The position numbers and the translations under genes are program-made. DNA of 50,604 bases from the NCBI GenBank assembly GCA_015523565.1, contig WAKA01000156.1, positions 1 through 50,604 on the forward strand, given 5' to 3'. Position 1 is the first letter of the stretch. Each line of letters starts with the position of its first letter. The stretch comes from Candidatus Heimdallarchaeota archaeon (lineage in GTDB: Archaea; Asgardarchaeota; Heimdallarchaeia; Heimdallarchaeales; Kariarchaeaceae). This document shows, piece by piece, positions 9,469 through 12,947 of this stretch. Under the pieces are notes generated by a model that was given only the letters and a program-made list of their open reading frames with translations, was not told where the DNA came from and searched no databases.

Positions 9469-10314
9469 ATGGATAAGATAATGGCATTCCTTTTTTACGT
9501 TCTTATTGGACTGTCTGTCAATCTTTTAATCGGTTTCGTGGCCTACCTGAAAAAATCATTGTCTTTTCCATCTGGGTTTACTGCAGCAGGTCTAGTGGGA
9601 ATTACCATATTTCTTGCATCTTGGAAAGCTTGGACGGTTCTTATGTTTTTTTTTGTTTCTTCCTCTGCATTGTCAAAATTCAAAAAAACAGATCCTATCA
9701 AATCTGAGGCCATGGCATTCGCTGAAAAGGGGGATGAACGAGATGCCCTCCAAGTTTTTGCCAATGGTGGCACTGCATTCATTTTTTCACTTATTGTCTT
9801 ATTCATGTCTGGTGTGAATTTTGGTTCTTCCATGACCCCTCCTCTAATGGCAATTCTTGCCTCCCTTGCAGCAAGCACGGCAGATACTTGGTCCACAGAG
9901 ATAGGCACCAGTTCACGATCTCTTCCTGTTTTAATATATCGACCAACGGTACATGTTCCACGTGGCACTTCCGGTGGGATTACTGCTTTAGGAACCTTTG
10001 CATCATTGTTAGGTGCATTGTTGGTTGGTGTCGTTTCTTCCCTCCTCTTTTCTTCCTATGCCCTGCTATTGCCTATTGCCGTTTCTGGTTTTATAGGGGG
10101 TGTCATTGATTCATTACTTGGTGGGCTTGTACAGGCATCATATCGGTGTGTTGTGTGTCATAAGGCTACTGAAAAACGGATGCATTGCAACTCTCCAACA
10201 GAGTATGTCAAAGGAATCTCTTGGATCGACAATGATGCAGTCAATTTTATATCTAGCTTCCTTGCTGGCTTGCTTGCTTATTTTTTGGTCTATTATCCCC
10301 TTATGCCATATTGA
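9469..10314 (+). CDS. DUF92/TMEM19 family membrane protein
   Basis: RDALQVFANG, ADTWSTEIG, GTSGGIT, DSLLG, NDAVN; CxxC..HC insert. Confidence 0.9.
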   Translation: MDKIMAFLFYVLIGLSVNLLIGFVAYLKKSLSFPSGFTAAGLVGITIFLASWKAWTVLMFFFVSSSALSKFKKTDPIKSEAMAFAEKGDERDALQVFANGGTAFIFSLIVLFMSGVNFGSSMTPPLMAILASLAASTADTWSTEIGTSSRSLPVLIYRPTVHVPRGTSGGITALGTFASLLGALLVGVVSSLLFSSYALLLPIAVSGFIGGVIDSLLGGLVQASYRCVVCHKATEKRMHCNSPTEYVKGISWIDNDAVNFISSFLAGLLAYFLVYYPLMPY

Positions 10315-11695
10315 CCCATTCATCAATGATTTGGTCAATTGTTTCCAAGACTTGTCTTTCATTGTCATTTTCAATCAGTATTGCATCGCCTTCTTTTTGT
10401 GATATGATATTTGCCACTATGCCTGTTGTTCTTTGTATGATCTCTACAATATTCCCCAATTCATGGTCTTTCCTAATTTTTTTTGGTAAAACCAATCCAA
10501 TTGATGTTTCCGCCTCATTTCTCCCTTGGGTTATGACTGCAAAAGCCACATCGTCGGGCACTAAGCCTTCTGCTACTGTGATTTTTGCGACATTTTGTGC
10601 ATGTTGCCAAGGGATCATGTCTACTTTCACGTAATGGAGACTTTTCATCAAGTTGAAGTCTCTTGCCTTAATGTAATTGTATCCTGCAACTGCTGATTTC
10701 CTGATGTCTATGATTTTCGCCTTTATGGAATAATACACTTCATCTCTTTCTCCCAACAACAGTGGAATGGCCATATGTGTGATATTTTCATTGTATAGGT
10801 CTCTCAGAACTTGTGCAAACTCATGTGCATATTTCAGAATTGATCCCTCTGGTTCAAATGCAAGAATGTATTGCTCTCCTATAGGTGCTGCAGACATTGG
10901 CAAGTATTGGTTTGCAGAGGTTTCTACTGCAATGGCACTTACCAGTTTTTTCATTTCATTCTCAGAGAGGTCTTCAAGAGTTCTTTCTCCTTCCCTACTT
11001 TCAATTTCAATCCCCGCTTGGGTCAAGAGACGTTCCACATTATTCTTGTTTCCAGTAAGGCTTGGCAGGATTGGATTGGATGAGAAATATATCGCATCCA
11101 CAATGGGCATATAGTTTAAAGACAACAATGTCAAGCCAGTCTGCAAATGCAACTGTCCGTCTTCTATTGCATCGTGAAGAATCATTTCATTTAATCCCTT
11201 GAGTTGTCCATGGGTTGCCAATGCGCTGATGATCGGTTGCACAACTATATTCTTGACAGAATCCAACATTGGTGAGACAACAAAAAACATCATCGCCGCC
11301 AAAGTAGTGTGCTGACCAAAATATCCAAATCCCCCTGTATGGAAGACATTAGGCAAAACTTCACTGTTTTTTGCTGGTTGGGTGAAAACAAATGTTTGAC
11401 CTTCCCTTTTTGGGACTTTCTTTGCCTCTTCAAATGTGATGCCAATGATAATGGCATCGTTGTCTGTCTCAACAAGTTCTTCTTTTATGTCTTTTATCCG
11501 TTCAAATTTTTTTAAATGGACAGGGCTTTGCATGTGGTAATAATAAATTGCCAAAAGACTTGCCGCGACTGCGGCATCAATTCCATTCCAGTAATAAATT
11601 GTCACTGGATCTGTTGGTTCTTTGAGTTTCTCCGCAATTTGAATGGCGTTTGCCATGAAATCATCTAACCGTTGTATTGCGGGGACATCTTCCAT
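10301..11695 (-). CDS. GAN/RecJ/Cdc45-like DHH family protein, catalytically degenerate
   Basis: PIVDAIYFSSNPILPSLTG..LLTQAGIEI...RTLEDLSENEMKKL is typical of archaeal GAN; adjacent to uS15; metal ligands absent. Confidence 0.72.
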   Translation of the reverse strand: MEDVPAIQRLDDFMANAIQIAEKLKEPTDPVTIYYWNGIDAAVAASLLAIYYYHMQSPVHLKKFERIKDIKEELVETDNDAIIIGITFEEAKKVPKREGQTFVFTQPAKNSEVLPNVFHTGGFGYFGQHTTLAAMMFFVVSPMLDSVKNIVVQPIISALATHGQLKGLNEMILHDAIEDGQLHLQTGLTLLSLNYMPIVDAIYFSSNPILPSLTGNKNNVERLLTQAGIEIESREGERTLEDLSENEMKKLVSAIAVETSANQYLPMSAAPIGEQYILAFEPEGSILKYAHEFAQVLRDLYNENITHMAIPLLLGERDEVYYSIKAKIIDIRKSAVAGYNYIKARDFNLMKSLHYVKVDMIPWQHAQNVAKITVAEGLVPDDVAFAVITQGRNEAETSIGLVLPKKIRKDHELGNIVEIIQRTTGIVANIISQKEGDAILIENDNERQVLETIDQIIDEWVNMA

Positions 11696-11813
11696 AATAC
11701 TTTTTCAACATTCATTCTAAATCTTAAACCTGTTTCTAGACTCTGGATTTCATGTCGAGGTTTTTTGAAGTTCCTATCAAATTGTTTTTTAATGGCAGTT
11801 CCTTGTGAATTAT

Positions 11814-11855
11814 GAGAATGCTGGTGCTGTCTGAAAAGAAGCAACTGGTATTCTT
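11814..11855 (+). promoter_or_regulatory. Structured 5' leader (hairpin) of the uS15 gene
   Basis: GAGAATGCTGGT (11814-25) pairs with ACTGGTATTCTT (11844-55); upper stem GCT/AGC and TCT/AGA; GAAA tetraloop; TATA-like TTTTTTAA at 11785-11792. Confidence 0.6.
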
Positions 11856-11870
11856 CAAGGAGTGAATCAA

Positions 11871-12326
11871 ATGGCAAGAATGCATTCACGAAAAAAAGGT
11901 AAGGCGAAAAGTAGAAAACCATATGTGACTGAAGTTCCTGAATGGACTCCTCTTTCTGCCAAGGAAGTTGAGGAATTGGTAGTTCAGCTCTACAGGAAAG
12001 GTATCCCTATGGCTAAAGTTGGGATGATCCTTAGGGATCAATACGGAGTTCCCAATGTGAAATTGGTCACTGGCAAAAAGATTTCAAAAATCTTGGAGGA
12101 AGCCAAACTCAAGCCAGAATTCCCTGAGGATCTTATCAACCTCATCAAAAGGGCTATGAACCTTAGGAACCACCTTTCCGAAAACAAAAAGGATCTCAGT
12201 TCAATGCATGGGCTAAAGAGAATTGAGTCAAAAATTTACAGGCTTTCAAAATATTATCGAGAATCTGGTCGTATCCCCTCTGATTGGAAATATGATCCAA
12301 ATCGTGCTTCAGTTCTCCTTAGGTGA
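11871..12326 (+). CDS. rps15: Ribosomal protein uS15 (archaeal S15P / eukaryotic S13)
   Basis: MARMHSRKKG, LRDQYGVP, PEDL, IESKIYRLSKYY, WKYDP. Confidence 0.97.
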   Translation: MARMHSRKKGKAKSRKPYVTEVPEWTPLSAKEVEELVVQLYRKGIPMAKVGMILRDQYGVPNVKLVTGKKISKILEEAKLKPEFPEDLINLIKRAMNLRNHLSENKKDLSSMHGLKRIESKIYRLSKYYRESGRIPSDWKYDPNRASVLLR

Positions 12327-12947
12327 TTTTTCAAGGCGAACGACCAAGATTGGAATCTTTTTCTTGTTCCTTGAATGGAACTTGTATGTTTTTTTCAATG
12401 TGAATTCTTCGGCAAAATATCCTGTAAGTTCCCATCCATGTTTTTTCGTTAATTTTGCATAGTGATCTATGTTTCGTTTAACGCCATCCACCACTGCATA
12501 TATGACATTTGAATATTCAAATGCCTTACGGACAAACTCTGTATCCCTCATTTTTTTTTGTTGTATCCCAAACGGTGGATTCATTATTGTTGTGTCAATT
12601 GGAATGTTTGGACTCCATTCTCTTGCATCTTCTTTGATAATTTCGAGTGACACCTCGAAAATGTCTCTGTTTTGTTTTAATATTGTAATTGCATCTTCAT
12701 CAATCTCAACTGCAAAAACCCTTTTTGCATTGGTCATGGCCGCTGCAATTGCGAACCCTCCTGTCCCTGCACATAGGTCGACCACTGTTTTCCCTGAAAT
12801 GTCCCCCATCATTGCGGCTTGGTGTATGATTGTTGCAATTAGTGGTGGGGGTGTGGCATATTGCTCCAAATTCACTTTTGGGCTCGCAAATCCTTTCAAA
12901 TTTCTGCTTAAATGTCCTTCCAATTCTGATTTCCTGATATCAATCAC
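12309..12947 (-). CDS. METTL5-family rRNA m6A methyltransferase
   Basis: LEQYATP, DLCAGTG, MNPPFG, YKFH. Confidence 0.9.
   Translation of the reverse strand: MIDIRKSELEGHLSRNLKGFASPKVNLEQYATPPPLIATIIHQAAMMGDISGKTVVDLCAGTGGFAIAAAMTNAKRVFAVEIDEDAITILKQNRDIFEVSLEIIKEDAREWSPNIPIDTTIMNPPFGIQQKKMRDTEFVRKAFEYSNVIYAVVDGVKRNIDHYAKLTKKHGWELTGYFAEEFTLKKTYKFHSRNKKKIPILVVRLEKSPKEN

Follow-up and report, generated by a model that had tools for sequence, protein, structure and literature searches.

A candidate uS15 leader in Ca. Kariarchaeaceae: a conserved 5' hairpin resembling helix 22 of the 16S rRNA

Upstream of the uS15 gene in Ca. Kariarchaeaceae lies a hairpin that copies both ends of helix 22 of the 16S rRNA at the spacing of the rRNA, with ordinary base pairs replacing the non-canonical middle of the rRNA helix. 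Because this conserved leader hairpin copies the docking site of uS15 on the rRNA, the protein probably limits its own production through its own mRNA. The analysis started from a 50,604-nt stretch of DNA of a Candidatus Heimdallarchaeota archaeon (the window; its genome, G000, is called the query genome), in which an autoregulatory leader RNA had been proposed. Comparative evidence supports it well as a new r-leader candidate restricted to one family; it would function like the bacterial S15 leaders but lies outside every S15 family of Rfam.

The hairpin claimed at 11814-11855 was reproduced by the MFE fold of 11798-11870, with 18 bp, two single-nucleotide bulges, a GAAA loop and four G.U pairs, and the tandem G11823.U11846/G11824-C11845 is present in this fold. 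Against dinucleotide shuffles its stability had a z of -4.4 on the + strand (0/200 shuffles) and of -1.1 on the - strand. The sequence and the coordinates of the hairpin stand as first described, but the register at its base had to be revised: the conserved pairs are G11814-C11856 and A11815-U11855 with U11854 bulged, not G11814.U11855. Across 22 leaders the first of these basal pairs is G-C in 20 and G.U in two, and the second is A-U in all 22. The GAAA loop and the apical bulges are not retained as functional parts, as they vary across the family, in which the apex has 6-27 nt and no shared sequence. The features are listed in Table 1.

Table 1. Positions of the leader, its promoter and the adjoining genes in the window
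Feature	Position	Strand	Remarks
Divergent DHH-family gene (DHH-CID domain), upstream of uS15	10301-11695	-	Context
TATA-like box TTTTTTAA of the uS15 promoter	11785-11792	+	Ends 21 nt before G11814
5' strand of the outer helix	11798-11805	+	Promoter spacer DNA between TATA box and inferred start; outside the element
Inferred transcription start	11813-11814	+	T11813/G11814 YR step, TATA spacing; uncertainty about 3 nt
Basal GA	11814-11815	+	Pairs with U11855-C11856; equals 16S G656-A657; G and A invariant
5' arm of the 9-pair stem	11816-11824	+	Ends in G11823 G11824 (16S G666, G667); last two G invariant
Apical extension with GAAA loop (11833-11836)	11825-11844	+	Variable: 6-27 nt, sequences unrelated across the family
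Single-nucleotide bulges of the MFE fold	G11829, A11843		GAAA loop at 11833-11836
3' arm of the 9-pair stem	11845-11853	+	Starts with C11845 U11846 (16S C739, U740); C invariant, U in 16/22, G in 6/22
Single bulged nucleotide	11854	+	Equals 16S A748; U in the query genome, A in 18/22
Basal UC	11855-11856	+	Equals 16S U749-C750; U invariant; second base C in 20 leaders and U in two
SD-like AGGAGTGA	11858-11865	+	Directly 3' of the stem base
uS15 (S15P/S13e) gene, 151 aa	11871-12326	+	PF08069 and PF00312; archaeal-eukaryotic type

Comparison of the family sequences indicates that the hairpin is real and conserved. The structural conservation expected in relatives was found in 24 of the 25 Ca. 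Kariarchaeaceae loci, in which the hairpin precedes uS15 exactly (22 loci) or with one arm 1 nt short (two loci; in G007 and L146 the 3' arm, read by eye, is one base shorter). These loci come from 12 family genomes, all of which have the motif upstream of uS15, from 11 further in-family contigs and from two metagenome loci, and they include close kin (L147 and G010; P0031 and G011). For the 11 contigs, which were picked by protein only, a prediction was written before the DNA was consulted, and 10 of them had the motif. The leader motif was not found at P0038 (L232), an in-family uS15 on a long branch; a TATA-like word stands about 43 nt before its ATG, suggesting that the leader of this gene is short.

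As a strict pattern we used GA, seven variable bases, GG, an apex of 6-27 nt, C(U/G), seven bases, one bulge and U(C/U). With 7/7 pairs it occurred 10 times in the 7.1 Mb of the query genome, and not once in 123 uS15 upstream regions from outside the family. Among the other Heimdallarchaeia examined, uS15 was not preceded by the motif. With a covariance model, the leader copy was the best match of its genome wherever it was scored. A search of 151 Asgard genomes with this model gave three weak extra matches (25-28 bits), which were rejected: two fall within ORFs, and the third overlaps an ORF of the opposite strand. This search, which scores few candidates per genome, passed over known copies and so is no proof of absence; specificity is better controlled by the direct inspection of the 123 non-family upstream regions.

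In the 22-row alignment 95.9% of the cells were paired, compared to 26-56% in slid controls, and seven of the 11 pairs had changes on both sides. Since kin are not independent, we used a tree-aware null, in which the approximately 82 substitutions inferred on the uS15 tree were redistributed among the 14 variable columns. The covariation that had been proposed as a check was clear: the seven variable pairs covary strongly. Pairing holds in 150 of 154 cells, whereas 5000 tree-aware runs never gave more than 119 paired cells, and the compensatory cells numbered 55 against at most 34 in these runs. On the tree, the seven middle pairs changed 4-9 times each, and the top G-C and the basal A-U not at all. 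RNAalifold recovered the same helix unaided, except for the G.U/G.G column. The alignment rows were chosen by a pairing-aware pattern that favours pairing, a bias bounded by the genome-wide and outgroup rates and by the blind set. All 36 wobble cells in the 22 leaders were G.U and none was A.C, which argues for an RNA structure on the + strand, and the + strand was more stable than the - strand in 22 of 22 leaders; an RNA rather than a DNA palindrome, as first proposed, agrees with both results. In computed ensembles the core stem had a probability of 0.8-1.0 in most leaders and GA/UC was partly formed (P 0.01-0.79). In most leaders the stem would thus be folded before any protein binds.

The resemblance to helix 22 was assessed with six 16S rRNAs of the family, numbered as in E. 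coli rrsA, because the query genome has no assembled 16S. In these rRNAs G656 and A657 are paired with U749 and C750, A748 is bulged, seven stacked pairs follow (three Watson-Crick, then mostly non-canonical), A665 is unpaired, and G666.U740 and G667-C739 close the series; the 656-750 pair differs in two of the six (A-U, G.U). The leader matches this arrangement in register: it has both of these basal pairs, a bulged nucleotide on the matching side, seven pairs, the G.U and the G-C. Mimicry of helix 22 through the G.U/G-C tandem, as originally predicted, holds for the G-C, which is invariant (22/22), and for the G.U at the helix 22 position in 16 leaders, but G.G replaces the G.U in the other six. 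It is also wider than was noted at first, because it extends to the basal GA/UC and the bulge at the rRNA spacing. G.G is the only departure at the wobble position and its six leaders belong to two clades on the careful tree. The S15 leader of T. thermophilus, a validated one, carries G.G in place of GU/GC (PMC4684408). We considered that U740 of the 16S rRNA might have changed in the G.G genomes, which was wrong for both of those with rRNA (G004, G009). The three-way junction with its G-G-C base triple was absent from the family leaders, which have no conserved 654/655 equivalents and no closing helix. The junction supplies most of the rRNA affinity of bacterial S15 (PMC8470358), and validated S15 leaders need only one of the two sites, G.U/G-C or junction (PMC7247131, PMC4684408).

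In E. coli S15, residues H41, D48 and S51 read the G.U/G-C motif (PMC4684408, PMC8470358), and they align with H101, D108 and S111 of the query uS15. Every family member keeps the equivalents of H41 and D48. The residue at the Ser51 position is often Gly or Ala, also in many members that keep G.U. Residue 110 (window 12198-12200) corresponds to E. coli His50; most archaea have His there, and most family members Ser. With all six G.G leaders this residue is Ile, Leu or His, and one His110 protein keeps G.U. Among the blind cases a coupling of the two was right in 3 of 4 for G.G with non-Ser110 and in 6 of 6 for Ser with G.U, but on the tree it amounts to only 1-3 independent pairs and is non-significant; it stays a lead. 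In genus g3 (L007, at 1501; L013, - strand, at 1953; L147, at 601) uS15 apparently starts with ATA, which follows an SD at a distance of 5-6 nt and where an in-frame ATG is missing; this would be a non-AUG start on a ribosomal protein. ARAGORN called one tRNA-Stop and three undetermined tRNAs in the query genome.

Both neighbours of uS15 in the query genome are on the - strand, the downstream one encoding a methyltransferase. This arrangement gives uS15 a promoter of its own there and probably a monocistronic mRNA. The DHH gene is upstream and divergent in the query genome and in G001. Most family loci have a gene of 416-470 aa (DHH-CID where annotated) after uS15 on the same strand, and an NTP-transferase gene upstream. 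The leader outlasted this rearrangement of the neighbourhood. The only ribosomal gene seen downstream of the leader was uS15, with its own promoter.

The TATA-like box claimed upstream of the hairpin is in place (TTTTTTAA), and 21 of the 22 leaders have a T(T/A)(A/T)A word whose end is 20-24 nt upstream of the conserved G. Genome-wide, the query genome has a strong TATA peak 22-26 nt before ATG, which shows that many genes are leaderless, and an SD peak 5-9 nt before ATG, with GGAG/GAGG peaking at 7-8 nt. In the genes of leaderless type the end of TTAA is 22-26 nt upstream of the ATG, most often 24 nt. A pyrimidine-purine step is found at the conserved G or the preceding A in 22 of 22 leaders. 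From the TATA spacing and this step, we place the start of uS15 transcription at about G11814, giving a 57-nt leader that opens with the hairpin. The uS15 mRNA would then begin at or within about 3 nt of G11814, with the hairpin at its very 5' end.

The SD-like sequence that was said to adjoin the hairpin does so (AGGAGTGA, with the uS15 ATG at 11871). The SD lies outside the stem; in 16 of 22 leaders the distance from the stem base to its first nucleotide is 0-4 nt. In five leaders of two separate clades (L008, L230, L234, L235, L237) a second short hairpin stands between the leader stem and the SD and puts the SD at a distance of 20-24 nt. This hairpin could stack on the leader stem as helix 21 does on helix 22. 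The outer helix 11798-805/11856-63, proposed to sequester the SD, had to be given up, being neither conserved nor downstream of the inferred start. On paper it has 8 bp in the query, a length reached by 4% of shuffles in that genome, and the longest such pairing averages 4.6 bp in the 22 leaders versus 5.0 in shuffles. Its 5' strand sits 5-13 nt after the TATA box and so is probably not transcribed. The word GTTCCTTG occurs three times in the window (11798, 12366 and 18296), probably by chance; the copy at 12366 forms one side of a hairpin that resembles a terminator and follows directly on uS15. Many folds show a second helix in which the SD is paired to the first codons, but the cost of opening the SD was not above that of synonymous codon shuffles (mean z 0.12; 10/24 above zero), and for this reason we do not claim it.

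We regard it as likely from these comparisons that uS15 binds the pre-folded stem beside the SD and blocks translation initiation. The hairpin would form at the very 5' end of the mRNA, folded without protein, and free uS15 in excess over rRNA would dock on it as on helix 22. H101, D108 and S111 would contact the G.U/G-C pairs, and a second contact would be made at the bulge and GA/UC. Because the equivalents of rRNA 751-754 are the first nucleotides of the SD, bound uS15 would block or trap the 30S subunit and lower uS15 synthesis. A base-pairing switch would be unnecessary for repression; in bacterial selections it was enough for repression that S15 bound beside the SD (PMC5100602). The rRNA, with the three-way junction in addition, is expected to outcompete the leader. 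The register match to helix 22, the covariation, the uS15-only context and the invariant H41/D48 equivalents count for this feedback. The lack of a three-way-junction mimic, Gly or Ala at the Ser51 position in many G.U members, the incomplete formation of GA/UC in the ensembles, a bulged U and not A in the query, and the one family member without the motif count against it. The conservation of GA could be owed in part to the initiator. The main difficulty for plain occlusion is presented by the five leaders with the extra hairpin before the SD, which weaken a simple steric model.

It is unlikely that the hairpin serves another factor, such as a different protein of the small subunit, a complex that contains uS15 or an RNA-binding protein unrelated to it, with the likeness to helix 22 partly coincidental. 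The missing junction and the varying Ser51 equivalent would fit such a factor, and the matched positions beyond G.U/G-C are just five, for which the chance of a match is about 1e-3 by a rough post hoc estimate; however, the element occurs before uS15 only, and the positions fixed in it correspond to the uS15 site in the rRNA of the family. It also seems unlikely that uS15 binds but acts on transcription or mRNA decay, through promoter-proximal pausing, termination or access of a 5' nuclease. This could explain why the hairpin is at the inferred +1 in all leaders and why the SD is 20-24 nt away in five, but no U-tract was found after the stem, the SD abuts the stem in most leaders, and initiation is the step on which validated S15 leaders act (PMC8470358). 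Also improbable is a ligand-free, constitutive hairpin at the 5' end that shields the mRNA from 5' decay or tunes initiation: the stem is stable alone in most leaders and sits at the 5' end, as such a role would need, yet this leaves unexplained a weak G.U/G.G at one fixed position, the fixed distance of nine pairs, a destabilising bulge and neighbours that change freely. A DNA-level inverted repeat (a transcription-factor site) or a chance palindrome, which the location shortly after a TATA box and between divergent genes might suggest, is very improbable given an arm identity of 48% over the variable pairs, a spacer of 6-27 nt, the covariation (tree-aware null 0/5000) and the excess of G.U (36) over A.C (0).

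To our knowledge, very few cis-regulatory RNAs of archaea have been described. In Methanococcales, L1 represses its own mRNA through an rRNA-like L1 site; its ligand and fold differ from those of the uS15 leader. The archaeal L7Ae leader is similarly reported to let a ribosomal protein repress its own mRNA via an rRNA-like site, with a different ligand and fold (a k-turn) (PMC5539422, PMC6298567). Closer to our case are the S15-Methanomicrobia (RF03137) and S15-Halobacteria candidates, likewise archaeal, located before uS15 and proposed to mimic rRNA, and predicted only (PMC7247131). In these leaders, reported by Eckert and Weinberg (2020), uS15 is often followed by a recJ/DHH gene, and they mimic the multistem junction (PMC7247131), whereas the Kariarchaeaceae leader is a single hairpin that mimics helix 22 656-667 including G.U/G-C. 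The cmscan against Rfam that had been proposed gave no S15-leader match at E <= 10 in the window, and five family loci had no match at E <= 0.5; in control loci S15-Methanomicrobia was matched at 60-71 bits. The leader was also unmatched by the covariance models of the bacterial S15 leaders and of S15-Methanomicrobia and S15-Halobacteria (clan CL00121).

Among bacteria, the E. coli rpsO operator likewise uses G.U/G-C (H41, D48, S51) without the three-way junction (PMC4684408, PMC8470358). It forms a pseudoknot (entrapment) in equilibrium with two hairpins and includes coding sequence, whereas the Kariarchaeaceae leader would be a pre-folded 5'-end hairpin with a second rRNA-like end. The leaders of Thermus thermophilus, Geobacillus and Rhizobium act near the SD and also have a long helix in which G.U/G-C, or G.G in Thermus, is separated from a second contact by about one turn, but all depend on a helical junction (PMC4684408), and the Kariarchaeaceae leader has no 5' strand to close one. 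Unlike bacterial S15, the Kariarchaeaceae uS15 carries an N-terminal extension and belongs to the archaeal-eukaryotic type. Human RPS13 (uS15) likewise binds its own transcript, in intron 1, where a helix with G.U/G-C was proposed (Malygin et al. 2007, PMC2095825). The human feedback acts on splicing, and no homology to our leader is implied.

The uS15 leaders are a model for the evolution of RNA-protein recognition. If our reading is true, the Kariarchaeaceae leader would provide a minimal ligand of 31-45 nt for uS15 of the archaeal-eukaryotic type, and its natural variants (G.U versus G.G; with or without the second hairpin) make the determinants of binding directly testable. It would also place uS15 feedback in a lineage next to the eukaryotes, in which RPS13 regulates its own splicing, although continuity is not implied. 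A literature search, mostly outside subscription journals, found no Asgard uS15 leader. That this is the first autoregulatory uS15 leader of Asgard archaea and a new architecture, with a junction-free copy of helix 22 running from +1 and occluding the SD, is a tentative and rather doubtful claim; its strongest form would add RNA-protein co-evolution (G.U to G.G with loss of Ser110) and separate uS15 leaders in each Asgard lineage. Since S15 regulators arise easily (PMC5100602), the leader would strike a specialist as convincing and useful more than as startling.

Other conserved sequences were observed upstream of uS15. In family f6 of the same class (L130, L131, L133, L135, L136, L137) a different conserved leader with three hairpins lies about 125 nt upstream of uS15. 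Its third hairpin pairs the GGUG of the SD, and 6 of its 38 pairs have compensatory changes among the 6 genomes. No Rfam match was obtained in the two loci scanned. This element is a second candidate uS15 leader of Asgard archaea and recalls the three-hairpin type of Thermus. In family f2 (L016-L030, L111-L125), CCGCCTTCG is conserved in most loci 20-30 nt upstream of uS15, even with another upstream gene (L120), and is the exact complement of 16S CGAAGGCGG near helix 23a. The related GCCTCGCCGCC precedes uS15 in several loci of Methanomassiliicoccales/Thermoplasmata (e.g. L037, L046, L050). In Thorarchaeota (L044, L073, L077, L080, L082, L083, L085, L094, L101, L104, L107) we saw GGGGCAGACCC ... 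TTTTGGG ... AGAGG between the TATA box and uS15, with a weak consensus fold (-3.1 kcal/mol) and no covariation term. Three loci from genomes titled Eggerthellaceae, Acutalibacteraceae and Faecalibacterium (L056, L057, L060) have an archaeal uS15 and Methanomassiliicoccales-like upstream DNA, and these contigs are likely misbinned.
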